This document shows positions 2,774-57,624 of a stretch of DNA of 64,000 bases, in pieces (the first letter of the stretch is position 1; each line of letters begins with the position of its first letter). This DNA comes from Candidatus Bathyarchaeia archaeon (GTDB lineage: Archaea > Thermoproteota > Bathyarchaeia > Bathyarchaeales > Bathycorpusculaceae), in contig JAVZLM010000001.1 of NCBI GenBank assembly GCA_038883775.1, positions 128,001-192,000 on the forward strand. The letters run 5' to 3'. Position numbers and translations under genes: made by a program. The notes beneath the pieces were generated by a model, which saw nothing but the letters and a program-made list of their open reading frames with translations, did no database searches and was not told the DNA's origin.

Positions 2774-3347
2774 TTTGAGCGTCGAGTCCCCTAAAGGGCA
2801 AGATGCGGAGAAAATGAAGCATGACTTAGCCCTATTAGAGGCTGCGCTATATGTAGCTGGGCGCCCCTTAAACTTAAACGAATTATGTTCGGTTTTGAAG
2901 ACTCGTTCAAAGAATAAGGTTAGAAAACTTGCTAAGGAGCTTATGAAAGCCTATGCGAATAGGAATACTGCCCTCGAAATTTTAGAGTTGAAGGATGAAC
3001 GGTATGTTTTGCAGTTGAAAGCCGATTTCACGCCTTATGTTAGAAAATTCGTTAACAGACCCTTGCTTTCCCTTGGTCCTTTGAAAACCCTTTCCTACAT
3101 AGCCTATAGACAACCTGTATCCCAAAAAAGAGTCGTTGAGGTTCGGGGACACCACGCTTACATTCACATAAGGATGTTGAAGGAGATGGGTTTGGTTGCT
3201 GCTGAAAGAAGCGGACGCTCAACAGTTCTTAGAACTACAGAATATTTTGCAGACTACTTCGGTTTAAGCCATGATGTTGCTGTTATGAAGAAAGAGTTGA
3301 AACATGTTTTTGAAGACTACTCAAAACAAGAGAAGCCTCAATCATAG
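2745..3347 (+). CDS. scpB: Segregation and condensation protein B
   Basis: LEAALY, L.TLSYIAYRQPV, VRG, TT..F.DYFGL motifs; operon context. Confidence 0.93.
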   Translation: MQKAEKPALNLSVESPKGQDAEKMKHDLALLEAALYVAGRPLNLNELCSVLKTRSKNKVRKLAKELMKAYANRNTALEILELKDERYVLQLKADFTPYVRKFVNRPLLSLGPLKTLSYIAYRQPVSQKRVVEVRGHHAYIHIRMLKEMGLVAAERSGRSTVLRTTEYFADYFGLSHDVAVMKKELKHVFEDYSKQEKPQS

Positions 3348-3415
3348 TATGGATAGGTTTATATGCATAAAAGACGGTGTTAGTGAACACTTAAGATTAA
3401 AAAGGGAAAATAGAA

Positions 3416-3814
3416 ATGTCGGTTTGGCATGGCGATTTACATAAGAGAAAACCTTCTGGAGGCAGAAAGAGAGCCTATAGAAGCAAAAGAAAATTTGAAG
3501 AGGGAAGATTTCCAACAGAAACAACCCTTGGCGAACCCAAAAAGAAAATGGTTAAGGGAAGAGGCAAAACCATAAAAATCAAGGCTTTAAGTGACAAGTA
3601 CGCTTGCGTAACCGACCCAAAAAGTGGAAAAACAGAAAAAGTCGAAATTATCCGTGTTGCCAAAAACCCAGTTAACATCGATTATGACCGCAGAGGCGTA
3701 ATAACAAAAGGCGCAATAATCGAAACCTCCTTAGGCTTAGCCCGCGTTACGTCCCGTCCAGGACAAGATGGGGTAATAAATGCTGTTCTCTTAGGCGAAG
3801 AAGAAAAGAGCTAA
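3416..3814 (+). CDS. rps8e: 30S ribosomal protein S8e
   Basis: KRKPSGG, RRGVITKGAII, TSRPGQDGVINAVL. Confidence 0.97.
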   Translation: MSVWHGDLHKRKPSGGRKRAYRSKRKFEEGRFPTETTLGEPKKKMVKGRGKTIKIKALSDKYACVTDPKSGKTEKVEIIRVAKNPVNIDYDRRGVITKGAIIETSLGLARVTSRPGQDGVINAVLLGEEEKS

Positions 3815-40605: not shown

Positions 40606-41670
40606 CTAAAGTTTTTTAAGAGTCTTAGTTAAAATTTCAACATGATCGCCCACATACACATCATCTTCTATTCTGACTCCTCCTAAATCAGGAATGTATA
40701 TTCCCGGTTCCACTGTAAACACATATCCCCTCTTCACTTTCTCTGTTGTGGTCATACTAACAATCGGTTCATCATGCCCCAATCCAAGTCCATGACCAAT
40801 GCAGTGGGTGAAGTATTCATCGTAACCATACTCTTTAAAAAGCGACCGGCATCTCTCTTCAACTAGCCTTAAATCTTGCCCAATCTTTATCGCTTTTATA
40901 GCTTCTTCTTGCCCCTCTACTACAATGTCAAGAATCTCTAAAAGCTTCTCTGAAACATTGCCCACCGGATATGTTCTGGTCAAATCAGAGAAGTACCCCT
41001 CGTAGACTGCTCCAAAATCACAAATCACAAGCTCTCCCTCCGAGAGTTTCTTGTTTGTAGGTATATGATGGGGAAACGCGGAATTTTTTCCAGCTGCTAT
41101 TATAGTCGGAAAACTCATCAGTTGAGCTCCCTTAGATCGCACAACCCGATCAATTTCAATTGCTATTTCAGCTTCAGTCTTTCCCTCCCTTAGAATCTCC
41201 TCTACAAGGATCTTAGCGCCGTAGTCAACCAACTCTGCAGCTTTCCTAAGCTTTTCCACCTCATCTGGCTGTTTGCAGGCTCTCATCTCTCGAATGAAAT
41301 CATCCTTTTCCACCCTTATACCACTAATCTTATACTCCTCATCGCAAAGAATGCTCTTTACATTGAGGTTCATAAGAAGCTTTTTAACCATTTCATTCTC
41401 AACTTTTGGATTAGGTGCAACATCTGGGTAAAATCTCACATCCTTAATTGCACAGTGTTCTTTCACCCTGTTCTTTTCAAGAGGATATGCCAAGCCCACA
41501 GGATCGCCATCCGCTGGGATAATAACATGATTCAACAACGTATAGAAGGGCAGGTGAGTGGAAGAGAGGTAACGAATGTTTTCTGGCTGTTTAACAAGGA
41601 ATGCATCAAATTCTCTTTCAACGAGCATCTCCCGAATTGTAGACCATCGCCTTTCGTAGTAGTTTAGCAT
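40606..41670 (-). CDS. Xaa-Pro peptidase (M24B)
   Basis: PHH, D.GA...GYFSDLTRT, H.IGHGLG, TVEPGIY, GVRIEDD. Confidence 0.94.
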   Translation of the reverse strand: MLNYYERRWSTIREMLVEREFDAFLVKQPENIRYLSSTHLPFYTLLNHVIIPADGDPVGLAYPLEKNRVKEHCAIKDVRFYPDVAPNPKVENEMVKKLLMNLNVKSILCDEEYKISGIRVEKDDFIREMRACKQPDEVEKLRKAAELVDYGAKILVEEILREGKTEAEIAIEIDRVVRSKGAQLMSFPTIIAAGKNSAFPHHIPTNKKLSEGELVICDFGAVYEGYFSDLTRTYPVGNVSEKLLEILDIVVEGQEEAIKAIKIGQDLRLVEERCRSLFKEYGYDEYFTHCIGHGLGLGHDEPIVSMTTTEKVKRGYVFTVEPGIYIPDLGGVRIEDDVYVGDHVEILTKTLKKL

Positions 41671-41886: not shown

Positions 41887-44259
41887 ATGGTTCAGAAAAA
41901 TCTTATGTCAGCGGTTTTTCTCGTTATCTTAATATCGCTTATAGTTATCCCAAACAATACTTCTGCAGCTCCTAATCTATCTAATCCGCCGAAAAATCCA
42001 TATGAGCTTATCATAGACGTACCATTAGGCGCTGGAGGTGATAGTGTTGATCCTGCTATGGGAAATGTATTCGTTCCATGGCACGTATGTGAAGTCCCTA
42101 TAGGTTTTGACGGCGAACGTTACGATGTCTTTATTCCTTTAGCGGCCACTCAAGCTTGGATAGGTCCGCCACAAAATAACCCGACTTATGGTCCCCTGTC
42201 TCCACCTTATACAAATTATACAATATACTTCAAAATACGCACAGGCATACCTTTCCACAACAGATGTAGAACTGATGAGCCATTCAATTTTAATCAGTAT
42301 TACTTAACAACCATTGATGTGGAATACAGCATTGAAAGAGTGTTGGTGCACGACTTTTTAGCTTCGTGGACAACTGTTTATTTATATGAACCTTTGCTGG
42401 ACTGTCAAACTGGAGACCCTACAGATCCAAATTTTGGAACGAAGATAGATAACGCAGCTCAGAGCAATGAAACACATGTTTGGCTAAATATTGCAAATCC
42501 AGGCTTGAGTGAAGGTGGATCCGTTTCATTTGCTCCAGTCAAAATGTTTGAAACCGAAGATGGACGTTTTAGCGCAACATTTTGGGATGAAATTGCGCAT
42601 CTCCCTCTAGGATATCCTGTCAGAATAATTCTACAAGTAATTGCTGAGACATGGGTAGGCATCATAAGCAAACAATGGGTGCTCGACTTTGTGATTCCAT
42701 GGGGTGTCACTAACAACATAGATTTGAACCCCGATGTGGAGGGAATACAGTTTGAATGGGATGGAGATTTCACTCATTGGGCTGACTACTGGCGTTGGGG
42801 AGAAAGCCCGCTTGATAAAATAGGTACCTTACACCCGGGTGTAATCATCGGGACAGGTCCATATATACTGGACCGATGGGATGCAACGCCTGCGGGAGAA
42901 GTGTCGCTTGTTAGGTTTGATGAGTATTGGGGAGGATGGCCAGCAAGATTGCCGAGTCCACCCTATTCGCCGCAACCAAGCAGTGGCATAAAACCAGCAG
43001 GTTACGTAACAAGAGTAACTATGAAGCGTAAGACTGAAGCCAGCATCATAGCTGATCTTTTATCTGGAGACTGCGACCTTGCACCCGAAATCTCAAGAGG
43101 AAGTTGCGTATCACTGCATGAAGATTATGACCTAAAAGGTCCAACACGCCCAGGGATTAGACTCCACTTCTATCCTTTCTTGGAGGTCATGTCATACCAT
43201 TTTACATTTATCATTCAACCTACGTTGGACAATAGATGGGGAAAAGTTATCGCAAATAACACGTTCAGCGATGATGCCATACCTGCAAATTTCTTCAACG
43301 ACTCCCATGTACGCAAAGCATTTGCCTATCTCATAAATTACACCATGATAATCCAAGACATGTTATTCGGCGAAGCATACCAGCCTGTTACATGCGCACC
43401 ATCTGGCATACCCTACGTCAATCTCACTCAGCCGCACTACACACAGAACATAACTAAAGCTATCGAAGAGTTCAACTTAGCCTTTGATGGGCAACTTGCA
43501 GAAACAGGCTTCACTATCAAACTGTATTATTTAGCCTTCGATATATGGCCTGCCATCACCGAAGATCTCGCAGCAACTATAAACAAGGTGGGAAATGAAT
43601 ATTTTAATGGCAAATTCCACGCTGAGTCACATGAAATCTCTTCAGCTGAATTTTACACAGCACTATTCGAACATCAGCTTGCAGCTTATCCGATGGGTTG
43701 GATTGGGGACTATGCGGATATACATAACTTTATAGTCTGTTACATGGGCAGCAGTGGTTATTGGGCTTATGCTTCAGTTTATAGCAACCCGGAGGCAGAT
43801 CAATTAATACAAAAAGGAATGAGAACGCCTGACGGCCCTGAAAGACAAGCGATCTACCAAAGACTACAGGAGATATACTATGAAGATGTTCCTAGTGTAC
43901 CAACCCATGTTGAGGTGAGAAGATGGTACGCAAGAACGTGGGTTCAAGGAAATCAGCCAACCCATCCACTTTATACTACTACTTTTGGATATGCCCATTG
44001 GAAATGGGAGTATCTTCGGGGCAATGTGAACTATGACGACAAAGTCTTCATGGATGACATCCTCGCCATTATCGACGCCTTCGGCTCCTACTACGGCAAG
44101 GCGAATATACCAATAATGCACCCAAGATGGAACTTTCACTGCGACGTTGACGGAAATCCCTTTGACTCGTGGCGTGACAGAAAAATTGATATGTACGATA
44201 TAACAGCAGCCCTAGACAACTTCGGAAAAACCCAAACACCATGGCAACCACCACCCTAA
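41887..44259 (+). CDS. Second ABC peptide substrate-binding protein (family 5) with C-terminal dockerin-like domain
   Basis: Paralog of 38141-40504; DVEYSIER, GTGPY, VRKAF, GWIGDYAD; near-identical dockerin-like tail. Confidence 0.9.
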   Translation: MVQKNLMSAVFLVILISLIVIPNNTSAAPNLSNPPKNPYELIIDVPLGAGGDSVDPAMGNVFVPWHVCEVPIGFDGERYDVFIPLAATQAWIGPPQNNPTYGPLSPPYTNYTIYFKIRTGIPFHNRCRTDEPFNFNQYYLTTIDVEYSIERVLVHDFLASWTTVYLYEPLLDCQTGDPTDPNFGTKIDNAAQSNETHVWLNIANPGLSEGGSVSFAPVKMFETEDGRFSATFWDEIAHLPLGYPVRIILQVIAETWVGIISKQWVLDFVIPWGVTNNIDLNPDVEGIQFEWDGDFTHWADYWRWGESPLDKIGTLHPGVIIGTGPYILDRWDATPAGEVSLVRFDEYWGGWPARLPSPPYSPQPSSGIKPAGYVTRVTMKRKTEASIIADLLSGDCDLAPEISRGSCVSLHEDYDLKGPTRPGIRLHFYPFLEVMSYHFTFIIQPTLDNRWGKVIANNTFSDDAIPANFFNDSHVRKAFAYLINYTMIIQDMLFGEAYQPVTCAPSGIPYVNLTQPHYTQNITKAIEEFNLAFDGQLAETGFTIKLYYLAFDIWPAITEDLAATINKVGNEYFNGKFHAESHEISSAEFYTALFEHQLAAYPMGWIGDYADIHNFIVCYMGSSGYWAYASVYSNPEADQLIQKGMRTPDGPERQAIYQRLQEIYYEDVPSVPTHVEVRRWYARTWVQGNQPTHPLYTTTFGYAHWKWEYLRGNVNYDDKVFMDDILAIIDAFGSYYGKANIPIMHPRWNFHCDVDGNPFDSWRDRKIDMYDITAALDNFGKTQTPWQPPP

Positions 44260-44405: not shown

Positions 44406-45440
44406 TTGGGTTTGCGAGAATATATCATAAGAAGAATCATTTTGCTAATACCTGTAGTCTTTGGAGCAGTTATACTTGTTTTCGCTATCACACAGATGAT
44501 TCCGCCTGCTTCGAGGGCATACCTTTACATAAGGTCAGAAAAAGATATTCAAAAAATATCAGAATTCATAAAAGCTTACCATCTAGACGCTTCTCCTCTG
44601 GAGCAGTTCTATTACTGGTTCCAAGAAGTTTTAAAAGGGAATTTAGGCTGGTCAACAGAGGGAAGAGCCCCTGTTTTAAGCGTGATCAGGACCTCTTGGC
44701 CTGCTACAATTGAAATAGTGCTTTTTTCAGCTCCAATAACAATACTTTTGGGTATATACCTAGGAGTGCTATCTGCTGTCCATCGTGATAAACTAGTTGA
44801 CCATGCCACACGCTTATTTTCAATAACCGGCTACTCCCTTCCAGCTTTTTGGCTAGCACTCATATTACTTTCGATTGCATTTTCCTTAACGGGAGAAAAC
44901 ATAACAGGTAGAGTTTCTCCAGAACTCCAGAATGTCGTGACAAACTCGCTCATATTTAAAACCTATACTGGTCTATACACAATTGATGGAATATTAAACG
45001 GAAGGTTAGACGTAACTATTGATGCACTTAAACATTTGATCCTACCCGTTATTACGATAACCACGGTTAACGTCGCAGGCCTAATTAGACTCATGCGATC
45101 CAGCATGCTTGAGGCCCTTACAAAAGGCTATATAGTCACAGCTAAGGCTAAAGGTCTAAAAAATAGTCAAGTAATAAACAAACATGCCAGAAGGAACGCC
45201 TTAATACCAGTAGTTACGATGTCGGGAATGTTAGTCATCTGGATGCTCTCAGGTTTGGTTATAACTGAAACTATTTTTAATTTTGGTGGCTTGGGAAGTT
45301 GGGCGGCAAGATGTGCATTACGATTAGATATAGCATCAGTAGTTGGTTTCACACTTTTTACGGCATTACTTTTCGTTATTTCAAACTTAGTAATTGACAT
45401 TTTGTACGCCTACATTGATCCGAGAATAAGGCTGGGATGA
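44406..45440 (+). CDS. dppB: Oligo/dipeptide ABC permease DppB/OppB
   Basis: YIIRR, GNLGWS, SLPAFWL, RLMRSSMLE....Y..TAKAKGL (EAA), YAYIDPRI. Confidence 0.93.
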   Translation: MGLREYIIRRIILLIPVVFGAVILVFAITQMIPPASRAYLYIRSEKDIQKISEFIKAYHLDASPLEQFYYWFQEVLKGNLGWSTEGRAPVLSVIRTSWPATIEIVLFSAPITILLGIYLGVLSAVHRDKLVDHATRLFSITGYSLPAFWLALILLSIAFSLTGENITGRVSPELQNVVTNSLIFKTYTGLYTIDGILNGRLDVTIDALKHLILPVITITTVNVAGLIRLMRSSMLEALTKGYIVTAKAKGLKNSQVINKHARRNALIPVVTMSGMLVIWMLSGLVITETIFNFGGLGSWAARCALRLDIASVVGFTLFTALLFVISNLVIDILYAYIDPRIRLG

Positions 45441-45441
45441 T

Positions 45442-46620
45442 ATGCGTTCAAAAAAATTCAAATTAAAATTCTATGAATGGAAAAAGGCTAATGAGCCAAC
45501 AATAAAAGAATTCAAATTTATGTTGAGCAATATTAGAAAAAGTCCGTTGTCAATTATTGGCATGTTCATTATTTTATTTTATGTGCTTGTTGCATTATCA
45601 GCACCCTATCTTGCTCCCCCGTATCCATCATGGGACGTGGCGAAAATAAATGATCCCTTCGCTATTCCGCGTGCTGGTAGCAAATTTCTTCCTTCACCAC
45701 CCACTCCAGAACATCCATTTGGGCTAACAATCGATCAATATGATATATACTATGGATGTATATGGGGGAGCATAACCGCCTTCCGTGTAGGAGTCTACGT
45801 TGTGGCAATATCTTTATTGATAGGCCTGACTTTAGGATTAGTTGCTGGCTATTATGGAGGTTTAGTGGACGAAATTTTAATGCGGTTCACAGACATCATT
45901 ATGGCATTTCCAGGTTTGATACTGGCTATGACGTTTACCATAGCATTACCCGGAACGTTAACAATTCCTCTGACAGTCATTTTAATATTATTGACAGTTT
46001 TTTTCTTAATTTTAACTACAAGGAATCTTTCAAGCATCGAAAGAAGAGAAATTTTAAAAACGAGAACTTTCACAATTCCAATTAGTGTAACCTTAGCGTT
46101 AATGGCCGTTGTAGCCGCAATATTTTTTGGATACATCTCTGATGTGGGAATTTTAAACATACCTTTAACACGACTTGATAAAGTTTTAATATCACTAATT
46201 CTTGTCGGATGGCCCGGATACGCGAGGCTGATAAGAGGAGAAGTTCTCCGTACAAAAAACGAAGATTATGTGGAAGCTGCTAAGGCCATTGGATGCAGCG
46301 ACTTACGGATAATTCTGAGGCATATTGTTCCTAACACGATCTATCCTATAATCATCTTGGGGTCACTAGACATAGGCTCGATTGTTCTCTCCGCGGCTGC
46401 GTTAAGTTTCCTAGGCATAGGCGCAGAGAAAAATTTCGCAGACTGGGGACAACTAGTTCAAAAATCACAGCAAATTATGACAGCAGGCGCGCAGAGTTTG
46501 CTTTTTTACTGGTACATATGGTTAATTCCAGGAGCGTTCATCTTTATATTTGGTTTGGGATGGAACCTTCTTGGAGACGCACTTAGAGACATTTTGGATC
46601 CAACATTGAGAAGGCGATAG
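45442..46620 (+). CDS. dppC: Oligo/dipeptide ABC permease DppC/OppC with two-TM insertion
   Basis: HPFG, AGYYGG.VDE.LMR, WPGYARLIRG, YVEAAKAIG, LGDALRD.LDP. Confidence 0.93.
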   Translation: MRSKKFKLKFYEWKKANEPTIKEFKFMLSNIRKSPLSIIGMFIILFYVLVALSAPYLAPPYPSWDVAKINDPFAIPRAGSKFLPSPPTPEHPFGLTIDQYDIYYGCIWGSITAFRVGVYVVAISLLIGLTLGLVAGYYGGLVDEILMRFTDIIMAFPGLILAMTFTIALPGTLTIPLTVILILLTVFFLILTTRNLSSIERREILKTRTFTIPISVTLALMAVVAAIFFGYISDVGILNIPLTRLDKVLISLILVGWPGYARLIRGEVLRTKNEDYVEAAKAIGCSDLRIILRHIVPNTIYPIIILGSLDIGSIVLSAAALSFLGIGAEKNFADWGQLVQKSQQIMTAGAQSLLFYWYIWLIPGAFIFIFGLGWNLLGDALRDILDPTLRRR

Positions 46621-46622
46621 AA

Positions 46623-47747
46623 TTGCAAAGTGATAGCCTAATAAAAGTTGAAGGTTTAGTATTAAGATTTTACACTTACGAAGGCATAGTTGAAGCGTTA
46701 GACAACGTGAACTTACAGATAAAACCTGGCGAAATACTTGGGCTTGTTGGCGAAACTGGATGTGGAAAGAGCGTTACAAGTCTTTCAATACTTAACATAG
46801 TCCCTCCACCGGGAGTAATTGAAGGTGGAAAAATAATCATAAACACAGATGGAAAAGAAATAGATCTTTTAAAACAGAAAGAAGATTTTTTGAGGAAAGT
46901 TCGTGGCAACGATATATCCATGGTTTTTCAGGAGCCAAAGGCGTACCTTAACCCGGTCTATACTGTGGCAGATCAAATTGGAGAAGTTTTAATCGAACAT
47001 AGAAAAAAGGAATTTATCGATCGTGTACTTGAAGAGCTTAAACAAAAGAATGAAAGTTTTTATTTACGCCTATATACGAAAATGGCTAAAAATCCGAACG
47101 CTTTGTCCATTAAGGTTCTTTCTAAAATACCATTGATCAGAAGATTCGAAAACCCACTTAAAAGTGAAATCAGAAAGGAAGTAATCAAAATCCTTAGAAG
47201 TTTGGAGATCGCCGACCCTGAAAGGGTTGCTGATATGTATCCACATGAACTAAGCGGTGGAATGGCGCAAAGAGTTGTGATCGCAATGGCCCTTGCATGC
47301 AACCCCAAGCTTCTGATATGCGATGAACCTACCACAAATTTGGACGTAACTGTGCAGGCTCAAATATTGGAGCTCATAAGAATTTTAAGGCAAAACTTCA
47401 AATCCTCAATACTTTATATTACGCACGATTTGGGAGTCATCGCCGAACTTTGTGAACGGGTAGCAGTAATGTACGCCGGGAATGTTGTTGAAATTGCTGA
47501 AGTTATAGAGATTTTCAAGAAACCTTTACACCCGTATACTCAAGCATTGCTTGAGTCAATTCCAAGACCGGGAAAAAAATTTAAATCAATTCCTGGGATG
47601 GTGCCGAGTCTAATTAACCCTCCGAAAGCATGTCGATTTTATGATAGATGCTATTACACAATGGATATATGCCAAAAGATTAAACCTAAACTCATAGAAG
47701 TTACAAAAAATCATTTCGTTGCTTGCCATATGTATGGAGAAAAATAG
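46623..47747 (+). CDS. dppD: Oligo/dipeptide ABC ATPase DppD/OppD
   Basis: GETGCGKS, YPHELSGGMAQR, DEPTT, HPYT, C-terminal CRF..RC...C...VACH. Confidence 0.94.
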   Translation: MQSDSLIKVEGLVLRFYTYEGIVEALDNVNLQIKPGEILGLVGETGCGKSVTSLSILNIVPPPGVIEGGKIIINTDGKEIDLLKQKEDFLRKVRGNDISMVFQEPKAYLNPVYTVADQIGEVLIEHRKKEFIDRVLEELKQKNESFYLRLYTKMAKNPNALSIKVLSKIPLIRRFENPLKSEIRKEVIKILRSLEIADPERVADMYPHELSGGMAQRVVIAMALACNPKLLICDEPTTNLDVTVQAQILELIRILRQNFKSSILYITHDLGVIAELCERVAVMYAGNVVEIAEVIEIFKKPLHPYTQALLESIPRPGKKFKSIPGMVPSLINPPKACRFYDRCYYTMDICQKIKPKLIEVTKNHFVACHMYGEK

Positions 47748-48824
47748 ATGTACGAGCTAATACTTTACATAAAAGAACTAAAAAAATACTATCCAATACT
47801 CGGCGGAATCCTAAGGAAAAAAGTTGCAGAAGTCAAAGCAGTAGATAACGTAAGCTTTCAGATATTCAGAGGCGAGTGCTTAGGACTTGTTGGCGAGTCG
47901 GGATGTGGAAAAACTACATTGGGAAAAACAATAATAAGACTTCTTAATCCAACATCGGGTCACATATACTTTAGTATTCAAGATAACATATACAAAGAAG
48001 CTGAAAGCTCAGAACAAAGTTCAATAAACATGGAAGAATTACAAAAAATTGGAATCAGCCCAAGCCAAGTAAAGAACATGGCTGACATTTCAACGTTCAA
48101 GGGATTAAAGCTTAAAAAGCTTCGTAGAAGAATGCAAATAGTTTATCAAGATCCTACGACTTCCCTAAATCCAAGAATGCTTGTAAAGGATATAGTGGGC
48201 GAACCCTTAATCGTCCAAAAAATTGTTAAAAAATCTGAAGTTCTGCCTAAAGTTACTGAAATGTTACACAAAGTGGGAATGGGTGAACAGCACCTTTACA
48301 GATATCCACACGAATTTAGCGGGGGACAAAGACAACGAATTGCTATAGCAAGAGCACTCATTACGAACCCGGAATTTGTAGTCTTAGATGAACCAACATC
48401 TGCAGTTGACGTTTCTGTTAGAGCTCAATTGTTGGAACTATTTCAAGGACTACAGAAAAGCATGGGATTGACCTATCTCTTTGTAAGCCACGACTTGAGC
48501 GTTGTAGAATGCATAAGTCACAGAGTTGCCGTGATGTATCTTGGAAAAATAGTTGAGTTAGCTGAAACAGAGAAAATATTCAAGAATCCTTTGCATCCCT
48601 ATACTCAAGCACTTATGAATTCGATTCCAATACCTGACCCGACTAAACGCAGGATGCGAGCTATCCTAAGAGGAGAAGTTCCAAGCCCAATTAATCCTCC
48701 AATAGGCTGTAGATTTCATCCACGTTGTTCATTAGCGATGGATATATGTCGCAAAGAAGAACCATTGTTACAGGATGCCGGAAACCATCATATGGTAGCA
48801 TGTCATGCAATTAAAGGCAAATAA
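47748..48824 (+). CDS. dppF: Oligo/dipeptide ABC ATPase DppF/OppF
   Basis: GESGCGKTT, YPHEFSGGQRQR, DEPTSA, GEVPSP.NPP.GCRFHPRC. Confidence 0.94.
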   Translation: MYELILYIKELKKYYPILGGILRKKVAEVKAVDNVSFQIFRGECLGLVGESGCGKTTLGKTIIRLLNPTSGHIYFSIQDNIYKEAESSEQSSINMEELQKIGISPSQVKNMADISTFKGLKLKKLRRRMQIVYQDPTTSLNPRMLVKDIVGEPLIVQKIVKKSEVLPKVTEMLHKVGMGEQHLYRYPHEFSGGQRQRIAIARALITNPEFVVLDEPTSAVDVSVRAQLLELFQGLQKSMGLTYLFVSHDLSVVECISHRVAVMYLGKIVELAETEKIFKNPLHPYTQALMNSIPIPDPTKRRMRAILRGEVPSPINPPIGCRFHPRCSLAMDICRKEEPLLQDAGNHHMVACHAIKGK

Positions 48825-48847: not shown

Positions 48848-49492
48848 TCAGCGTTTTCTAAAAAGTTTTCTTTTCCTCTTGTATAGTTCATATGATGTTA
48901 AAACTACACCTAAAACGGTTAGTGTGACACCGACAGGTAAAAGAAACATGTAAGGATAAGAAACTTCTTGTTTCAGCAACCAAATTCGTGCCGGGGGATC
49001 TTCGGATCCGAAATTATTAAAAATTGACTTCTCATCAACTATAACGGTAAAGTTTCCCTCTTTCTTAACCACTCCACCAATGTAATCTTGAACTTTTTCT
49101 ACAGATAATGATGATTCACTACTTGATCCTCCTGCACCTACACTTGCAGTTGCGTTGAGTAATGATAAAACTGGCGTGATGCTTAAAGGTGATCCTTGGT
49201 ATACATAGAAATAACATACAAAGTCAATACGAGTAGCGTCTGGACCAGTGATGGTGACGTTAATCGCAACTGTGCGTCCACCCGCAAGAAATCGTCCCCA
49301 CTCGCGATGTGCCCTTATGTCGACGATCATCATTTCACCTTTTCTATAATATCCTGTGACATTCCAAACAAAGTATTCCTGTTTTACAGATAATTGATCA
49401 GGGGATATGTTAGAAATATTGGAAACACTCATAAGTGAGAAACTCGCAATTAAAAGAAAAATGCCCATGTAAAGGGAAGTATTTTTTCTCAT
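48848..49492 (-). CDS. Hypothetical protein with signal peptide, beta-rich ectodomain and C-terminal TM
   Basis: Hydrophobic N- and C-termini, basic tail, N-glycosylation sequons. Confidence 0.75.
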   Translation of the reverse strand: MRKNTSLYMGIFLLIASFSLMSVSNISNISPDQLSVKQEYFVWNVTGYYRKGEMMIVDIRAHREWGRFLAGGRTVAINVTITGPDATRIDFVCYFYVYQGSPLSITPVLSLLNATASVGAGGSSSESSLSVEKVQDYIGGVVKKEGNFTVIVDEKSIFNNFGSEDPPARIWLLKQEVSYPYMFLLPVGVTLTVLGVVLTSYELYKRKRKLFRKR

Positions 49493-49646
49493 CAGTTGAG
49501 CACCAAAATGTTAACATTGCTTGAACATTTATGTTTTTCTTTGAAAGAGAAAACATTTTAAATTTTCAGTTAGAACGAACATTTTAATGTAGGTTGTGCT
49601 CAACAAACTTATAAATCGCTTTGATAACCTCTATACGTGGTTGAAA

Positions 49647-50756
49647 ATGAAACATAAATGGTTAACAAGGGCAACCTTGCTTACTGTGATATTACTATTA
49701 TCTTTGCTGGCGCCTCTTTCTACGATAGTCGTTAAAGCCCAAGAAGAGGCTACGATAAGGATTATAAATCCCTTGTCAGGTGACAACAAGTTCATTTTTA
49801 ACATTGCGGATTTTCCAGTGAACACCACCTTCACTGTTGAATTTTACATCGAAAATGTAACTGCACTACTAAGTTGGCAAATATTCATAAAATGGAACAA
49901 TACAATTATACACTTTCAAAAGGGTTGGATACCTGACAACAACGTTTTCGCTGAAGCTATTGACCAAGGCGCTACGCTAATAGCACCGCCGCCATCCGTG
50001 GAGATAGTAGAGGATACTGGCTACTTGAAATATGGTGCCTCAATACTTCCATTAACACCAGTTAATGTGCCTGACAGCGCCCTTTTATGCAAGCTAAACT
50101 TCACGATAGCAATAGAGCCTCAAGACAGCCAGGAATTCACAAACATAGAATTGATACCAAAAGAGGAAGGAAGTACATCCTTAGACACTTTTGTCATCCT
50201 TAAAAAAGACTCATCTCGGACACCTATTCCCGTGTACGCCCAACCGGCAATCGTGAGAATTTTAAAGGAGGAAATTTCGATAATTCGAGATCTTGCGATA
50301 CACTTGCTTAAGGTTGAACCATCAATTGTTGATGCTGGCGACACATTAACGATCACATTAGTGCTCATCAATTTCGGTAATGATCTGGAAACTGCTAATA
50401 TCACAATACGTTATAACGAAACGATACTTATAAACTTTGAACAATCATTGGGAGCCAACCAAAACTTCATTAAAGAAAAAACATGGAACACAACAGGTGT
50501 TAAGCCTGGACTTTACATAATTTCAGTTGATATTGCCATACTTCCCGGCGAGACAAACACGACGAACAACCATGCAGAAAATATGGTAATTATTAACAAA
50601 AAGCTAGAAATTCAAGAGTATATAGTTTGGATTCTTATTTTATGGCTTAACACACCACTGGGAATATTAGCAATAACATACACCTTGATTTTCATAGGAA
50701 TTTTCACATTATTATCGATACGTAAGAAACTAAAAGTTATACGAAGTAAGCTGTAA
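49647..50756 (+). CDS. Membrane-anchored cohesin-like + CARDB-like surface protein
   Basis: Signal peptide; FTVEFYIENVTALLSWQIFIKWNNTII...LLCKLNFTI cohesin-like pattern; DLAI..L.V.P...G..L.I...L.N.G...E...WNTTG..PG.Y.I......PGETNTTNN CARDB-like; C-terminal TM. Confidence 0.75.
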   Translation: MKHKWLTRATLLTVILLLSLLAPLSTIVVKAQEEATIRIINPLSGDNKFIFNIADFPVNTTFTVEFYIENVTALLSWQIFIKWNNTIIHFQKGWIPDNNVFAEAIDQGATLIAPPPSVEIVEDTGYLKYGASILPLTPVNVPDSALLCKLNFTIAIEPQDSQEFTNIELIPKEEGSTSLDTFVILKKDSSRTPIPVYAQPAIVRILKEEISIIRDLAIHLLKVEPSIVDAGDTLTITLVLINFGNDLETANITIRYNETILINFEQSLGANQNFIKEKTWNTTGVKPGLYIISVDIAILPGETNTTNNHAENMVIINKKLEIQEYIVWILILWLNTPLGILAITYTLIFIGIFTLLSIRKKLKVIRSKL

Positions 50757-50982
50757 AACTAAATAACTGTAAACAAAAAGATATTATATAAAGCGTTTTT
50801 ATTTTGCCATGCGAAAAAGGAAGATTAAGAACGGTTCAAGAAAAACTTAGTGCAAATAGCTACTTAGTTTAGTGCTTAGGTTGTGCGATGAGAGGTTCAT
50901 TTTATGCGTTGGTTTTTAAACGATGCTTGAGAAATAGCAAATTTAAAATATTTCTTTGTGGAAAAACTTAGCCAAGGTGAGA

Positions 50983-52059
50983 ATGTTGAATAAAAAATTA
51001 GTGATCGCGTTGATTCTGATGACGTTTATATGGTTAATACATTTATCGCTGTTGAATCAAGTGAAAGCCCAAACGTCGACAATTTCAATAATTAACCCAG
51101 GCCCAGCAAGTAAACCTGCAAAATGGACTGCTGCACCACCGCCTCCTGGAGAAATAGGTGGACCAAGCTTTACTTTTTACGCCCCTCAAACAGCTTTGGA
51201 GTCGACTTTCTTCATAAACTTAACCATTGAAAATGCTGTTAACATTAGAAGTTGGGGCATAGGTCTAGTCTATGAAAACGCGTCAATCGCTTATGTTTCG
51301 GCATGGAGACCTACAGATCACATATTTGCCCCCGCAGAAAGTGGCGGTGCAACCCCAATTGTTCCATCAGTTACCTTAGAAGGTATTAACACAACACATA
51401 CAATCCTAAAATGGGGCTATGCGTACCTTTGGAAGGATGAGGAAGGAAATCCGATAAGATGGGGATTTAATGGGTCAGGCGTATTATGCCAAATACAATT
51501 CAAATTGGTTAAAGCGGTAGATTCCGGCCAATGGACAACTGTTTTAGCATTGGATCCGGAGTGGACGCAAGTTTATCCTTTTGACATGCCCCCAGAAACT
51601 CCAAATGTAGAACCCGGCTATGTCACTTACATTTATGATGATACTCCTCCACTAATTCAGAACGTCACACAAACTCCTCCGGCAAATAATGTTCAACCAA
51701 ATGAACCTGTAATTGTTTCAGCAAACGTCACAGATGATAATGGAGTAAAAAGTGTAATATTAAATTACACAATCGACAATGGCGAAACTTGGACATCCGT
51801 AGCTATGACATATAATGAAGATTCAGGTTTGTATGAAGGAACGATCCCGGGACAAGCTGCGGGAACAAACGTAAAATATCAAATACATGCTGAAGATAAC
51901 GCTGGAAACATAGCCACAAACGACAATGAAGGAGAGTATTTCCCCTACATCGTTATTCCAGAGTTAACTATTGCAGCAATAGTTTTACTATTGACATTCG
52001 TGTCTCTGTTCATCATAATCGCTGCAAAACGCAATAAAAGACCAGTGATAAGAGCATAA
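50983..52059 (+). CDS. Membrane-anchored cohesin-like + Ig-like surface protein with IPE(F/L)-type C-terminal sorting signal
   Basis: FFINLTIENAVNIRSWGIGLVYE...GFNGSGVLCQIQFKLV cohesin-like; DTPPLIQNV...V.VSANVTDD.GV.SV.L.Y Ig-like; VIPEL + TM + basic tail. Confidence 0.75.
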   Translation: MLNKKLVIALILMTFIWLIHLSLLNQVKAQTSTISIINPGPASKPAKWTAAPPPPGEIGGPSFTFYAPQTALESTFFINLTIENAVNIRSWGIGLVYENASIAYVSAWRPTDHIFAPAESGGATPIVPSVTLEGINTTHTILKWGYAYLWKDEEGNPIRWGFNGSGVLCQIQFKLVKAVDSGQWTTVLALDPEWTQVYPFDMPPETPNVEPGYVTYIYDDTPPLIQNVTQTPPANNVQPNEPVIVSANVTDDNGVKSVILNYTIDNGETWTSVAMTYNEDSGLYEGTIPGQAAGTNVKYQIHAEDNAGNIATNDNEGEYFPYIVIPELTIAAIVLLLTFVSLFIIIAAKRNKRPVIRA

Positions 52060-52612: not shown

Positions 52613-53905
52613 TCATAGAAACTTTATGTAGGCTGGTAAGTCTAGAAAGCCATGTCCAGTCACATTAAACGCTATAACCTTCTTTTTATTTTCCCTCTTA
52701 CATTTAATTGCCTCGTCTATTGCACCTCTAATGGAGTAGGCCGCCTCCACAGCTGGCAAGAAGCCCTCGGTGCTCACAAAAATTTTTGCAGCTTCAAATA
52801 TAGCCTTCTCGTCAACTGGATAAGCAACCGCATCAATTAGGCCGTTATGCCTAAGTAAACTTACAACTGGAGAAGTGCATGTCTCTCGGAGGCCTTCAGC
52901 GTAAATTTCTGGCATCTCAAACGTGTGGCCAAGCGTGTACATTTTAAATAATGGTGGCAGTTCAGAGTATGTTTGATAGTCATATTTGTACTCGCCCTTA
53001 ATTAAAGTTGGAGAAGCCATAGATTGAACAGCTATAAATTTACATGTTAATTTCCCTTTAAGCACCTCTCTCATAAAAGGGAAAATAAAACCGGGCAAGT
53101 TACTCCCTGCTCCGCAACAGCTCACCATAACATTTGGTTTTTCGTCAATCAACTCAAACTGTTTCATTGTTTCAAGTCCTATTATAGTGTCGTGCAATAT
53201 GACATGATTAAAAAAGCTCCCAACAACTCGAGCATAACCATGTTCAATAGAATATTCAGTCGCTTCGGCAGTCGCAATAGAATCAGATCCCATATGGTTC
53301 GGCTTCTCCTTCAAAAGCATCTTACCAAGCTCGGTAAGGTTGCTTGGAGAAGGCACTACGGCGGCTCCGTACATTTTCATAAGAGCTCTTCGTTCTTTTT
53401 TCCACTTGTATGCCTTACGAACCCAAAAAATCTTGGCTTTTAATCCAGTCATGGCCGCTGCATATGCAACAGCTGTTCCCCATTGACCAGCGCCCGTCGC
53501 TGTACAAAGTCCTTTTGCTCCTTCTTTAGCAGCATAGTAAGCTTGCGGAAGCGCTGTGCATAGTTTAAAGCTTCCGGTAGGGTTTAAGTCTTCTCTTTTG
53601 TAATACATATGCGCGGGTGTTTTCAAAAATCTCTCCAGTCCAAACGCTCGGCACAGCGCTGTAGGTCTTCCAGCACCTATGTACAGATCTATTACTTCCT
53701 CCGGGATTGGAATGTACCTTTCATTTGAGTGCTCTTGTGCCATACATGCTTTTATGCGAGTTTTGTAAATTTTGTCCATTTTTTCTTTTAGCGGTTCGGG
53801 GACTATTTCTGGAGGTAAGGGTTCTGGTAAATCTGGCAAAATGTTGTACCAATACTTAGGTATTTCTTCGATAGTCAATTGGATCTGCTTTGGTTCTGTC
53901 ATCAT
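52613..53905 (-). CDS. Divergent TrpB2-like PLP-dependent enzyme
   Basis: IPKYWYNILPDLPEPLPP, GRPT.L.RA..LE, PTGS.K (PLP Lys), TGAGQWG, KMYTLGH, GHG.LDL. Confidence 0.88.
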   Translation of the reverse strand: MMTEPKQIQLTIEEIPKYWYNILPDLPEPLPPEIVPEPLKEKMDKIYKTRIKACMAQEHSNERYIPIPEEVIDLYIGAGRPTALCRAFGLERFLKTPAHMYYKREDLNPTGSFKLCTALPQAYYAAKEGAKGLCTATGAGQWGTAVAYAAAMTGLKAKIFWVRKAYKWKKERRALMKMYGAAVVPSPSNLTELGKMLLKEKPNHMGSDSIATAEATEYSIEHGYARVVGSFFNHVILHDTIIGLETMKQFELIDEKPNVMVSCCGAGSNLPGFIFPFMREVLKGKLTCKFIAVQSMASPTLIKGEYKYDYQTYSELPPLFKMYTLGHTFEMPEIYAEGLRETCTSPVVSLLRHNGLIDAVAYPVDEKAIFEAAKIFVSTEGFLPAVEAAYSIRGAIDEAIKCKRENKKKVIAFNVTGHGFLDLPAYIKFL

Positions 53906-53911
53906 CTTCGC

Positions 53912-55036
53912 CTAAGTTAAGAATCGTTTTGCGGTTTCCAAGTATATGTCAGTTAGTTTCTTAAGACTTTCTATCTCAACATATTCATTGGCAATATGTG
54001 AATTTCCGCCTCTAGGACCAAATATTATGTAATCTATATTAGCTATCGTTACGAAGTAGTTTTCATCAGCGGTTTCTAATATTTTAGTTTTCAAGTCTAT
54101 TCCATATTCTCTGCATACCTGTTCCAAACACTGTATTATCGGTGTCTTTTCCGTGTTCAGCACATAAGGCTCTTGCCAAGGGGTGGGTCTTTCAGCTAGT
54201 TTAACCCTTACATCTGCTTTAATATTGATGCTTTTAAGAAATTTTTTAAACTCCTGAAGGCTCCCGTCGACAGTTTCATCTATGCTCAAGTTTCGGTTAA
54301 TCCATATTTTACACTTGTCCGGTACTATGTCCGTCTCAACGTTTCCGCCTTCCACTTTCAATGTCATTAATGTGCCTTTTATGGGCATTCTATTAAGCAA
54401 AGTGATTATTTTTGCGGCTTCGTCTAACGCATTTACAGCATTTTCCGGTATTAAAAAATGAGAGCTTTTTCCAACAACCTCAATTTCATAAACCACCCTG
54501 GAGCATGCTCCAATGATTGTTTCTTCCATGTTTCCTTCAAAATCTGGACATAAACCGGCGTTAATCCCACTAAGGAGACCGCTTTTGCAAAGCGCATAAC
54601 TTCCTCTTGAGTATCGTTCTTCCTCACTAACAGCTGCGAAAACCAATTTTCCCTTTAAATTCATCTCAGCAAGTTTATTAAAAATCACCATATTTACTGC
54701 TAATCCGCCTTTCATATCAAAAGCGCCTCTGCCATACAACCGGCCGTTTTCAATGACGGCGTTGAAAGGGTCCTTTGTCCATCCTAAATGAACGTCTGCT
54801 ACGTCCGTATGTCCTTCCAACATTAGGCCTCGTCCATCTTCAGAATACTCATGAACTGCGATCACATCAGGACCGCAGTTTGGGACTTCAACCATTTTAA
54901 CGTTAAAACCTTTTTCTTTTAACCAGTCTGCTATGAAGTTAGCGATTTGGTGTTCCCTTTGGCTTGGGCTTTGTATGGAGATAAGCTTCTTAGTTAACCC
55001 GATGACTTCCTCATAAATGTTCATACTCGTCCTCAT
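53912..55036 (-). CDS. M20 family metallopeptidase/deacylase (ArgE/DapE-like)
   Basis: GHTDV, LYGRGAFDMKGG, EEE, GKSSH, FGP...SH..NE. Confidence 0.9.
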   Translation of the reverse strand: MRTSMNIYEEVIGLTKKLISIQSPSQREHQIANFIADWLKEKGFNVKMVEVPNCGPDVIAVHEYSEDGRGLMLEGHTDVADVHLGWTKDPFNAVIENGRLYGRGAFDMKGGLAVNMVIFNKLAEMNLKGKLVFAAVSEEERYSRGSYALCKSGLLSGINAGLCPDFEGNMEETIIGACSRVVYEIEVVGKSSHFLIPENAVNALDEAAKIITLLNRMPIKGTLMTLKVEGGNVETDIVPDKCKIWINRNLSIDETVDGSLQEFKKFLKSINIKADVRVKLAERPTPWQEPYVLNTEKTPIIQCLEQVCREYGIDLKTKILETADENYFVTIANIDYIIFGPRGGNSHIANEYVEIESLKKLTDIYLETAKRFLT

Positions 55037-55158
55037 AATAGAAATTTCTTTGTAGCTTTTAAAATTTCAACTAAGAGCAGTTTAATATTTACGATGCATT
55101 AAATCTTTAAATACAAAAGATGCGATTACTTTTAGTTCTAAAATTAAGAGGCTAGATT

Positions 55159-56073
55159 ATGATTAAAACAAATAAAGACAAACTACTTATAACTGAAATT
55201 TTAGGCGAGATAACTCATCCTGCGCTTGCTATGGAAATGGCGTATACGACAACATGGAATGGGAAATCCAAACTTGGCATTGGCATGGGCAGCATCAAAT
55301 ACAATGTGAAGATTGGAGACCCATGTTTTGGATGGGCTGAGGGAGAAAACGTTGAGCCAGGAGTCGCTGTTGACTCCATACAAAAGGAACCAGGTCAATC
55401 AATTATGGAAGAAAACGCATTTAGGATACTAGCCTGTATAGGGAATGAGGCTGTTGTGGTTTCAGGAGATGCAAAAGGCGCTAAAGGCGTAGTTGTTGGA
55501 AAACACGGTTATATTCCTCGCGGTGAGGGACTGAGGGGAGGCCACCATGTCTTAATATCATTTGAGGATTCAGACTTAGAAAAACTGGTGATAGGGGACA
55601 AAGTCCTAGTAAAAAGTCGTGGTGTAGGGCTGGAAATCGAAGGTTTCCAAAACGTGAAAGTTCTTAACATCGACCCTGAACTTTTGGAACGTATAGTAGA
55701 AATAGAAGATGGAAAACTCGTGGTACCAGTAGTTATGGAGGTTCCAGCATACATTATGGGTCAAGGTTCTGGGGGCATGCCCGCTGAGACAAGTAGTTAT
55801 GAAATTCAAACATCATCTCCAGTTGACGTAGAAGAGCTTGGTTTAAAGAGACTAAGACTAGGAGATATTGTAGCATGTAAAGATATCCTAACGGCTTGGG
55901 GGCGTGGCTACTATAAGGGAGCAGTAACGATAGGTGTAGTTTCATGCGGTTCAAGCGACTTGGCAGGTCATGGAATAGGGCTTACAAGCATTCTTACGTG
56001 TAAAGAAAAAAGAATTATGCACAAGCTTGATCCTAAAGCAAACATTGGCTACTGTCTTGGAATTTTAAAATAG
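55159..56073 (+). CDS. DUF4438-like protein, paralog 1
   Basis: MIKTNKDKL, YNVKIGDP.FGW, VEPGV, ACIGNEA.V.SG.AKG.KG, LRLGD, GHG.G, ANI. Confidence 0.8.
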   Translation: MIKTNKDKLLITEILGEITHPALAMEMAYTTTWNGKSKLGIGMGSIKYNVKIGDPCFGWAEGENVEPGVAVDSIQKEPGQSIMEENAFRILACIGNEAVVVSGDAKGAKGVVVGKHGYIPRGEGLRGGHHVLISFEDSDLEKLVIGDKVLVKSRGVGLEIEGFQNVKVLNIDPELLERIVEIEDGKLVVPVVMEVPAYIMGQGSGGMPAETSSYEIQTSSPVDVEELGLKRLRLGDIVACKDILTAWGRGYYKGAVTIGVVSCGSSDLAGHGIGLTSILTCKEKRIMHKLDPKANIGYCLGILK

Positions 56074-56090: not shown

Positions 56091-56966
56091 ATGATCGAAA
56101 CAAACAAAGATAAACTGCTTAAGATTGCCGCTTTAGGAGAAATCATCAATCCTTGGGTTATGAGCTACGCTTCTACGTGGGATGGAAAAACGAAGATGGT
56201 AATAGGCATGGGCGGGATCAATTATAACATAAAAATAGGTGACCCATGTTACGGCTGGGCCAGTGGAGATCACGTAGAACCAGGTGTTATCATTCAAGGA
56301 AAAGAGAAACGTCAACCATCTGCCTGTGCGTTGGCAAACCTTGCATGTATAGGGAATGAGGCTGTTGTGGTTTCAGGAGATGCAAAAGGCGCTAAAGGAA
56401 TGTATATTGGTAGACACGCGGGGGCCGATTGTATTTGCTGGTTCAAAGATGAAGACATTCAAAAACTTGTTATTGGAGACAAGGTTCAAGTCAAAACGTG
56501 GGGTGTGGGCTTAAAAATCAAAGGCTTCGAAGATGTTAAAACAAACAAGCTATCGCCTTCGCTTCTAGAGAAGATGAATATAGCAATCAAGGACGACAAG
56601 CTTGAAGTGCCGGTGGTCATGGAGATTCCAGGATACCTCATGGGCTCTGGTATAGGATTTGCGCCCATAACTGAACCAATTGACTACGACATCCAAACAA
56701 CATGTCCTGAAGTGGTTGAAGAATTGGGACTTAAAAAACTGCGCCTCGGCGATGTTGTAGCCTTAAAAGATCAAGCCTGTGTCTATGGTCGCGGGCATCA
56801 TCGAGGAGCTCTCACAATAGGCGTGATAATCCATGGTTTCAGTGACCTAAGCGGTCATGGTCCTGGAGTAAACCCCATCTTAAGCTCTCTTAACGGCAAA
56901 ATAACGACCCGTTTAGATCCAAACGCAAACATAGCGCTATACTTAGGATTAAGAGAAAGACTGTAG
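56091..56966 (+). CDS. DUF4438-like protein, paralog 2
   Basis: Same motifs (GDHVEPGV, DYDIQT, GHGPG); GGAGG upstream. Confidence 0.8.
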   Translation: MIETNKDKLLKIAALGEIINPWVMSYASTWDGKTKMVIGMGGINYNIKIGDPCYGWASGDHVEPGVIIQGKEKRQPSACALANLACIGNEAVVVSGDAKGAKGMYIGRHAGADCICWFKDEDIQKLVIGDKVQVKTWGVGLKIKGFEDVKTNKLSPSLLEKMNIAIKDDKLEVPVVMEIPGYLMGSGIGFAPITEPIDYDIQTTCPEVVEELGLKKLRLGDVVALKDQACVYGRGHHRGALTIGVIIHGFSDLSGHGPGVNPILSSLNGKITTRLDPNANIALYLGLRERL

Positions 56967-57024: not shown

Positions 57025-57576
57025 TTAAGGTTTAATTGTTGGAATTGTTTTGTTAAGCTCCTTGAACTTTTTGATGGCGTAATTCACGATTTTCTTTGCT
57101 TCTTCAGCGTTTCTCCATTCCTTAAACCTAACCCATTTGTGCGGTTCTAATCGCTTATAGGTTTCAAAGAATTCTTGTATTTCCACAAGTTTATGCTTGT
57201 GCACATCCGTAATATCCTTATAGCCCTCAAATCTTGCGTCGTTAACGAGCACGGACAAGATTTTTGGGTCTTCTCCTTCTTCGTCTTCCACTATTAAGGC
57301 TCCTATGACTCTAACCTTAACTATACAGCCAACCTCAAGCGGTTCATAACTTAGCACCATTATGTCAAGGGGGTCATTATCGTCAAACCATGTTTGTGGA
57401 ACAAATCCATAATCAACTGGAAAAACTACGGATGATGGTATGATGCGGTCTAAAACAAAGGATTCCCACTCAAGATTATACTCATACTTGTCCCTCGAAC
57501 CCATTATGACTTCAACAACCATGTTGAGCAGTTCTGGAGGCTTATCGCCTGAGGGGATGTCTTTCCAAATGTTCAT
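57025..57576 (-). CDS. ppa: Inorganic pyrophosphatase (family I)
   Basis: KYEY, DR, YGFVPQT..DDNDPLD, D.KI, FFETYKRLE. Confidence 0.95.
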   Translation of the reverse strand: MNIWKDIPSGDKPPELLNMVVEVIMGSRDKYEYNLEWESFVLDRIIPSSVVFPVDYGFVPQTWFDDNDPLDIMVLSYEPLEVGCIVKVRVIGALIVEDEEGEDPKILSVLVNDARFEGYKDITDVHKHKLVEIQEFFETYKRLEPHKWVRFKEWRNAEEAKKIVNYAIKKFKELNKTIPTIKP

Positions 57577-57624
57577 GGGCATAGCCTTCAAGCTAAATAG
57601 CGAACTTGCCTAATTTAGTTTTCC

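Follow-up and report, generated by a model that had tools for sequence, protein, structure and literature searches.

We describe TrpB2v, a variant TrpB2-like protein encoded in a 64,000-nucleotide stretch of the genome of a Candidatus Bathyarchaeia archaeon (contig JAVZLM010000001.1, positions 128,001–192,000; this whole stretch is referred to below as the window, and coordinates are numbered from its first nucleotide). The reading that we favor, with a probability of roughly 0.6, is that TrpB2v is a working pyridoxal 5′-phosphate (PLP) enzyme of TrpB2 ancestry that no longer uses indole and is coupled to the M20 metallohydrolase encoded next to it. As judged from alignments, TrpB2v has preserved the part of the active site that binds PLP and the amino acid, and in the part that handles indole a fixed and more polar group of residues has taken over (Ala, Asp, Ser, Arg, Phe, Glu, Thr, and Cys). 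The replacement of the indole residues, together with the M20 companion, argues that TrpB2v probably performs an amino-acid reaction different from tryptophan synthesis.

Family, fold, and active site of TrpB2v

By fold, TrpB2v is a TrpB2-type protein; the TrpB2 family models give a mixed picture. Its open reading frame (ORF) begins with two ATG codons, the second one codon downstream of the first, and a database copy of the protein (P0001) begins at the second. The Pfam model PF00291 matches with 130 bits, which identifies TrpB2v as a fold-type II PLP enzyme, and the TrpB2 model NF009057 matches with 518.6 bits, above its cut-off of 366; a further TrpB2 model, TIGR01415, gives 503.2 bits, below its cut-off of 518.85, and the TrpB1 model TIGR00263 gives 113.9 bits. 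The best dehydratase and cysteine synthase models reach 39.5 and 38.7 bits, compared with cut-offs above 350, and the Ser/Thr dehydratase family models NF005292 (39.5 versus 371 bits) and TIGR01127 (34.6 versus 378.75 bits) do not claim the protein. Sequence alignment to the solved structure of Sulfolobus solfataricus TrpB2 (SsTrpB2; Protein Data Bank [PDB]: 6hul_B) has an E-value of 7.8e-123. The same chain is the best PDB match to the AlphaFold2 model of TrpB2v, which is confident (predicted local distance difference test score of 93.9, predicted template-modeling score of 0.93), with template-modeling scores of 0.92/0.95, a root-mean-square deviation of 1.5 Å, and 47% identity.

An initial annotation of this DNA had proposed that the catalytic Glu is lost, and the change from TETGAGQWG to TATGAGQWG is indeed read directly from the nucleotides: the minus strand at 53480–53512 translates as GLCTATGAGQW, with GCG as the codon for Ala136 (Table 1). 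The PLP lysine and the reading frame had been described as intact, and both are, in that Lys114 is kept and no stop codon falls within the ORF. The other motif changes listed at that time are all present in a residue-by-residue alignment of TrpB2v to 6hul_B (GSFKLCT for GSHKINT, CGAGSN for GGGSN, AEGLRETC for AGGLRYHG, PAVEAAY for PAPESAH, and NVTGHG for NLSGHG), with the reservation that not every letter is peculiar to the variant: the E of AEGL is shared with canonical Bathyarchaeia-type sequences, as is the Y of PAPESSY, and Thr in place of Ser in the NxSGHG motif is also found in 4 of 65 canonical TrpB2 proteins.

These 65 proteins, from archaea and bacteria, make up the canonical panel against which conservation was scored, a column being called conserved when at least 90% of the panel agree (n = 98). 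In TrpB2v, 13 of the 98 conserved columns are replaced (H113F, N116C, E136A, L208D, G209S, Y226R, V231F, G266A, D312T, Y341E, H342T, P386V, and S416T), and at each of the 13 the same residue is found in all five variant lineages described below. Five of these fixed replacements (L208D, G209S, Y226R, V231F, and D312T) go beyond those already noted, and Glu136, Gly266, and Asp312 are each present in 65/65 members of the panel. L232F is an extra change relative to near Bathyarchaeia-type relatives. What is kept comprises Lys114, the T137-G-A-G-Q-W-G143 carboxylate loop, G265, S268, and N269 of the phosphate loop, E387, G417, G419, and the TrpB2-specific Arg340, which stands in place of the TrpB1 Asp305-equivalent (GLRY versus GLDY); K114 and T137–G143 are invariant over a 50-row alignment that includes the variants. 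With S416T, the Ser that contacts PLP N1 has become Thr; T416 aligns to the Ser of the TrpB1 LSGRG motif.

Mapping onto TrpB1, carried out by phmmer against PfTrpB and by hhalign of TrpB2 versus TrpB1 profiles (with a TrpB1 set from related genomes), equates K114 with Pf K82, A136 with Pf E104, F113 with Pf H81, C116 with Pf N84, R226 with Pf Y181, F231/F232 with Pf V186/V187, and R340-E341 with Pf D300-Y301 (St D305-F306). Of the 13 replaced columns, most match positions in or beside the TrpB1 indole sub-site, and Glu is also found at the indole-activating position in the TrpB1 profile. We take the Ala136 position to be that of E109 in StTrpB, and the roles of His86 and of the Ser that contacts PLP N1 are likewise mapped onto TrpB2v by assumption. 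From the shared S/T-L-x-x-A-x-[NS]-E-A motif and a helix at 208–222 in the model, we infer that L208 corresponds to St Leu166 (Pf Leu161). Passages of PMC9512447 describe the Glu109 carboxylate as hydrogen bonded to indole N1 and essential for C–C bond formation, and the Phe306 ring as a wall of the indole sub-site; the 183–185 loop adjoins E104, according to a passage of PMC11917138.

Lineage, selection, and other tryptophan genes

Among the best 120 of 7966 homologs, the motif reads TETGAGQWG in 117 and TATGAGQWG in 3, these being TrpB2v itself and two proteins at 86–87% identity. Cluster look-ups extend the variant to five distinct lineages, 82–93% identical to one another, with the same motifs in all. 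Source names on the nearest homologs point to Bathyarchaeia, and near-identical copies of the locus (52613–55036) occur in five hot-spring metagenome runs from three studies, one of which (run X1) may represent the sample of origin. No TrpB2v ortholog was found in 60 related genomes, four of them of the same genus, where the best other match has 57% identity; scans for close relatives among metagenome contigs (33 loci, best 57% identity) and genome contigs (48 loci, best 54% identity) returned canonical TrpB2 only. Differences seen at high depth at 53152/53153 and joints at 53001/53154 and 53498/53814–53820 were set aside, as they most likely come from canonical TrpB2 paralogs of other organisms that match at conserved motifs.

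The relationship to TrpB2 assumed at the outset was upheld by phylogeny. A maximum-likelihood tree with 88 rows recovers the variants as a monophyletic group (Shimodaira–Hasegawa-like approximate likelihood ratio test value of 100) whose stem is long, at 0.45 changes per column, and whose crown is shallow; their neighbor is a Bathyarchaeia-type TrpB2 group that includes this genome's own paralog. The variant clade shows the pattern of a burst of change and then conservation. A Paenibacillus mesotrionivorans record (L093, 8001–9176) encodes another strongly divergent TrpB2-like protein, with 39% identity and a tree branch of 1.3–1.5, in which Phe replaces the His before the lysine, Ser replaces Asn, and Thr replaces the Trp of GQWG; it has Ile at L208 and Asn at Y226 and retains the catalytic Glu.

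Within the variant clade, 115/430 positions vary overall, compared with 0/13 at the replaced columns. Where at least 95% of the 117 near canonical sequences agree, columns vary within the clade in 10/169 cases (6%), and the progressively less conserved bins vary in 31/88, 30/70, 30/82, and 14/21 cases (35%–67%). Between related strains in one hot-spring metagenome run, the seven listed differences in TrpB2v, a small sample, consist of six synonymous changes and S378R, and the one difference in the M20 gene is synonymous. Conserved columns thus vary little within the clade, which argues that TrpB2v is under purifying selection and is no decaying copy; the relaxed selection against which the initial annotation had cautioned was looked for, and the column bins and strain differences pointed to purifying selection instead.

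In this genome (1.69 Mb in 28 contigs, 91% complete), formation of tryptophan from indole is already covered, because two further TrpB2 genes, both canonical and both stand-alone, are present elsewhere (one of them at C7:73945–75201; TIGR01415, 679.7 and 576.1 bits, over the cut-off), which answers the earlier question of whether there is a separate canonical trpB. No TrpB1 over the cut-off was found in the 91%-complete sequence, in which the best matches to TrpA (TIGR00262; 21.6 bits versus a cut-off of 102.35) and to indole-3-glycerol phosphate synthase (IGPS; 18.5 bits versus a cut-off of 27) also remain below threshold. With TrpB2 present and no TrpB1, TrpA, or IGPS found, the organism resembles archaea that keep TrpB2 without the trp pathway, an example of which, according to a passage of PMC1854888, is P. 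horikoshii. Directly downstream of one of the canonical TrpB2 genes (L001, 1453–2808, on contig C7) is a 207-residue ParB-like ORF (2819–3442, plus strand) without a Pfam match and with a weak, N-terminal-only match to the ADP-dependent L-serine kinase SerK (47.4 bits versus a cut-off of 380); if its product had serine kinase activity, this ORF would be a source of O-phosphoserine, which TrpB2 enzymes are described as using (PMC5120207, abstract, and a passage of PMC11917138).

The M20 gene and the surrounding island

Same-strand order and a spacer of 6 nucleotides (nt) suggest that M20 and TrpB2v are on one transcript. One RNA-library run yielded a single 194-nt contig identical to part of M20, which is no demonstration of transcription. 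The M20 protein matches PF01546 with 99.2 bits and the dimerization domain PF07687 with 40.8 bits. Its best NCBIfam model, TIGR01910, gives 205.6 bits, under the cut-off of 217.6, and no equivalog-level assignment was obtained, all equivalog models (DapE, ArgE, LysK, and others) being far under their cut-offs. The motifs GHTDV, GRGAFDMKG, SEEE, CPDFEG, SSHF, and GGNSH align to DapE structures and are kept in 5/5 sequences, the Asp of CPDFEG being aligned to the Glu of the DapE GEP motif. By analogy with DapE, we take the metal ligands and general base to be the His of GHTDV, the Asp of FDMKG, the two Glu of SEEE, the Asp of CPDFEG, and the His of GGNSH.

Four close relatives of M20 have 78%–85% identity, and the next homolog has 35%; no M20 ortholog was found in the 60 related genomes, where the best match has 34% identity. 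The M20 relatives and the other TrpB2v sequences come from contigs of identical sizes (16927, 140946, 6259, and 6664 nt), and from the matching sizes alone we infer that M20 and TrpB2v co-occur on four other metagenomic contigs.

Comparison with two genomes of the same genus (G002 and G004) places the pair in an accessory island of ∼21 kb. Synteny with these genomes, at ∼90% protein identity, extends from the right end of the window down to a pyrophosphatase gene (57025–57591), breaks, and resumes at ∼36076, so that the interval ∼36076–57024 is specific to the present genome in this comparison; in its place, G002 and G004 have two unrelated ATP-binding cassette (ABC) genes, the orthologs of which lie on contig C6 in this genome. 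The island holds the peptidases and the Opp-type transporter listed in Table 1, several secreted or membrane proteins, TrpB2v, M20, and two DUF4438 genes. Three ORFs between the transporter and TrpB2v (in 48848–49492, minus strand, and 49596–52059, plus strand) have ends that resemble signal or transmembrane segments, belong to no firm family, and may encode proteins of the cell surface. One of the three, of 367 residues, has weak immunoglobulin-like and CBM matches, all under cut-offs. No tRNA was found at the island borders within 30000–62000.

The region between M20 and the divergent first DUF4438 gene likely carries the promoters of both the M20-TrpB2v and the DUF4438 pairs, as suggested by the resemblance of its boxes to archaeal TATA boxes. 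DUF4438 protein 2 is homologous to TM1086 (PDB: 3dcl/3n99). Relatives of protein 1 (80%–84%) occur on the 140946- and 6664-nt contigs that also hold M20/TrpB2v relatives; no close DUF4438 relative on the 16927-nt contig is among the matches listed, and similar proteins (68%–79% identity) occur on contigs without sign of the M20/TrpB2v pair, so that the link of DUF4438 to TrpB2v is weaker than that of M20. This genome has three DUF4438 genes, the extra two being the tandem pair adjoining M20; the third copy (C7:110774–111640) lies among genes for CBS-domain proteins and an amidohydrolase-like ORF, as seen by eye from translations, and this context gave no lead. A DUF4438 match is present in 38/61 genomes, and relatives that have any mostly have one; fused double-DUF4438 proteins of ∼450–530 residues exist elsewhere (e.g., P0255 and P0259). 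We found no literature naming DUF4438.

Table 1. Features of the TrpB2v locus and its surroundings, in window coordinates
Feature	Position	Strand	Basis or remark
M28 peptidase	36114–37532	−	Pfam/NCBIfam
SBP_bac_5 binding protein	38141–40504	+	Pfam/NCBIfam; very large, 787 residues
M24 Xaa-Pro-type peptidase	40606–41670	−	Pfam/NCBIfam
SBP_bac_5 binding protein	41887–44259	+	Pfam/NCBIfam; very large, 790 residues
Opp-type permease	44406–45440	+	Pfam/NCBIfam
Opp-type permease	45442–46620	+	Pfam/NCBIfam
Opp-type transporter ATPase	46623–47747	+	Pfam/NCBIfam
Opp-type transporter ATPase	47748–48824	+	Pfam/NCBIfam
TrpB2v, variant TrpB2-like PLP enzyme (predicted)	52613–53905	−	ORF of 430 residues, full length
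Ala136 codon GCG, at the indole-activating Glu position (PfTrpB E104)	53498–53500	−	Alignment
Lys114 codon, PLP Schiff-base lysine within GSFKLCT	53564–53566	−	Alignment (K of GSHK in 6hul_B; K82 of PfTrpB)
Spacer GCGAAG between the M20 stop codon TAG and the TrpB2v ATG ATG	53906–53911	−	Sequence read; 6 nt
M20 (ArgE/DapE-type) metallohydrolase, directly upstream of TrpB2v	53912–55036	−	ORF and Pfam; 374 residues
Divergent intergenic region, A/T-rich, with boxes TTTTAAAA and TTTAAATA	55037–55158		Sequence read; 122 bp
DUF4438 protein 1, divergent from M20	55159–56073	+	PF14505, PF20999; 304 residues
DUF4438 protein 2, 56% identical to protein 1	56091–56966	+	Pfam; 291 residues

Candidate reactions and known relatives

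In the mechanism that we propose, the Opp-type transporter of the island would import a dipeptide or N-acyl amino acid, and M20 would cleave it and thereby supply the substrate of TrpB2v. TrpB2v would bind PLP and a substrate of the L-Ser or O-phospho-L-Ser type and form the aminoacrylate. E136A takes away the indole-activating carboxylate, Y341E replaces the aromatic wall (St Phe306), and L208D, G209S, Y226R, V231F, L232F, H113F, and N116C would reshape the rest of the β-substituent sub-site. The pocket would in this way lose its hydrophobic character and become small and polar or charged, a pocket in which indole would be neither activated nor fitted and which would accept or expel a polar or charged β-substituent, or none; the freed Ser, phospho-Ser, or Cys-type amino acid would then be converted through the aminoacrylate.

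As to the direction of the reaction, we tentatively favor β-elimination to pyruvate and ammonia within peptide catabolism, although we hold this specific outcome to have less than an even chance. An island with a peptide transporter and with M28 and M24 peptidases indicates catabolism at least as much as biosynthesis, and counted together with this context is a genome in which no IlvA-type dehydratase over the cut-off and no Fe-S serine dehydratase was found. The SFK before the lysine and the small residue at the Glu position in TrpB2v presumably resemble dehydratase motifs.

Several points weigh against a working enzyme of this kind. Canonical TrpB enzymes are poor serine deaminases, according to a passage of PMC1854888. 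In plants, a TrpB paralog with the identical E-to-A substitution is described in passages of PMC12727527 as catalytically dead, and given this precedent, catalysis by TrpB2v cannot be assumed. The Gly-to-Ala change in the phosphate loop and the His-to-Phe change beside the lysine could weaken PLP binding. It should also be noted that the equivalence of L208 and Leu166 hinges on a TrpB2-specific insertion that phmmer and hhalign place otherwise, that the island context is known from this genome alone, and that the co-occurrence of M20 and TrpB2v on four other contigs is deduced from equal contig sizes.

Rival to the catabolic direction, and itself a sub-case of the broader explanation, is the view that TrpB2v is a biosynthetic β-replacement enzyme that joins Ser or phospho-Ser to a polar or charged nucleophile (amine, amino acid, or thiol) to give a non-tryptophan β-substituted alanine, with M20 either delivering the nucleophile or deprotecting the product. 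Arg340, a residue linked to the use of O-phosphoserine by TrpB2 (Busch 2014, cited in a passage of PMC11917138), is retained, ArgE/DapE-type M20 enzymes are classic biosynthetic deprotecting enzymes, and the invariance of D208, R226, E341, T342, and C343 in the five lineages looks like recognition of a zwitterionic or cationic partner, although D208, R226, and E341 could also pair mutually and close the pocket. The initial annotation had stated that engineered TrpB lacking the Glu changes its use of nucleophiles, and the tyrosine synthase TyrS4, which carries E105G, fits that statement (a passage of PMC13174591 and the title of PDB: 8egy). However, the neighborhood is one of peptide uptake and peptidases rather than of biosynthesis, the cluster showed no gene for a ligase, a carrier protein, or another tailoring function, and the M20-TrpB2v pair is an accessory trait not found in the 60 relatives, so that we regard β-replacement as doubtful. 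Unlikely, too, in our estimation is the more specific claim that in TrpB2v the prokaryotic TrpB family has its first natural member for a substrate other than indole, catalyzing (phospho)serine-dependent β-substitution in an Asp/Arg/Glu pocket with an amine or amino-acid nucleophile that M20 would deliver or afterwards deprotect. If it were true, the product would be an unusual β-substituted alanine, for example of the diaminopropionate or lanthionine/cystathionine type, and nature would have done what enzyme engineers do by removing this Glu.

That TrpB2v is instead a non-catalytic pseudoenzyme, retaining the fold and perhaps PLP but acting as a binding or regulatory subunit of canonical TrpB2, M20, or the DUF4438 proteins, seems improbable. 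Many of its catalytic-site residues are changed together, and plant TSB-like proteins, which almost always have Ala at the same Glu position, are described in passages of PMC12727527 as catalytically dead and as allosteric activators of TrpA; yet the 91%-complete genome revealed no TrpA or IGPS, the PLP lysine, carboxylate loop, phosphate-loop Ser and Asn, and N1 contact are retained, and the replaced residues are invariant and not relaxed. Very improbable is an indole-salvaging tryptophan synthase in which E341 or D208 stands in for the lost Glu, in spite of the two new acidic residues in or near the former indole sub-site and the TrpB2-like scaffold and Arg340, given that the aromatic and aliphatic side chains suited to indole, Y341 (St Phe306) and the conserved L208, V231, and Y226 of the COMM domain, are gone, that the genome already has two canonical TrpB2 genes, and that Glu is found in 65/65 canonical sequences.

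TrpB2v shares with the TrpB2 synthases (PDB: 6hul_B, 4qys, and 6hte) the fold, length, PLP lysine, carboxylate loop, and Arg, as well as a stand-alone gene outside a trp operon, but differs from them in having Ala where they have Glu, in the replacement of 13/98 conserved columns, in its sub-cut-off TIGR01415 score, and in always having an M20 companion. Like plant TSB-like (as portrayed in passages of PMC12727527), it is a natural E-to-A TrpB paralog retained under selection beside a canonical copy; TSB-like, however, is of the TrpB1 type and activates TrpA, whereas TrpB2v has a TrpB2 scaffold, no TrpA was found in its genome, and it has many more fixed changes. In engineered TrpB variants that lack the Glu (the tyrosine synthase TmTyrS, PDB: 8egy; E105G in TyrS4), its removal goes along with the use of a nucleophile other than indole in the same PLP chemistry (from a passage of PMC13174591 and PDB titles), but these enzymes are laboratory-made, are built on a TrpB1 scaffold, and still have a hydrophobic phenol pocket, whereas TrpB2v introduces Asp, Arg, and Glu. 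With the Ser/Thr dehydratases, CysK/CysM, and SbnA, TrpB2v shares the PF00291 superfamily and, in the proposed chemistry, the same aminoacrylate, without belonging to any of these families (scores far under cut-offs). In literature listings and selected passages, we found no account of any prokaryotic TrpB2 without this Glu. Neofunctionalized paralogs of PLP enzymes, and an E-to-A TrpB paralog in plants, are already known; what is new here is the extent of the pocket rebuilding, the TrpB2 scaffold, and the fixed M20 partnership.

TrpB is among the most heavily engineered enzymes for the production of non-canonical amino acids, and laboratories already remove its catalytic Glu to open the enzyme to new nucleophiles; the TrpB2v lineage would offer a ready-made starting scaffold and a test of what the TrpB fold can do in nature. 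If TrpB2v proved to be a pseudoenzyme, or a lyase resembling the dehydratases, the result would be more ordinary but still a clear case of neofunctionalization. TrpB2v also bears on the old question of why archaea without the trp pathway keep TrpB2 genes, and it would show the recruitment of a biosynthetic enzyme by an accessory peptide-utilization island.

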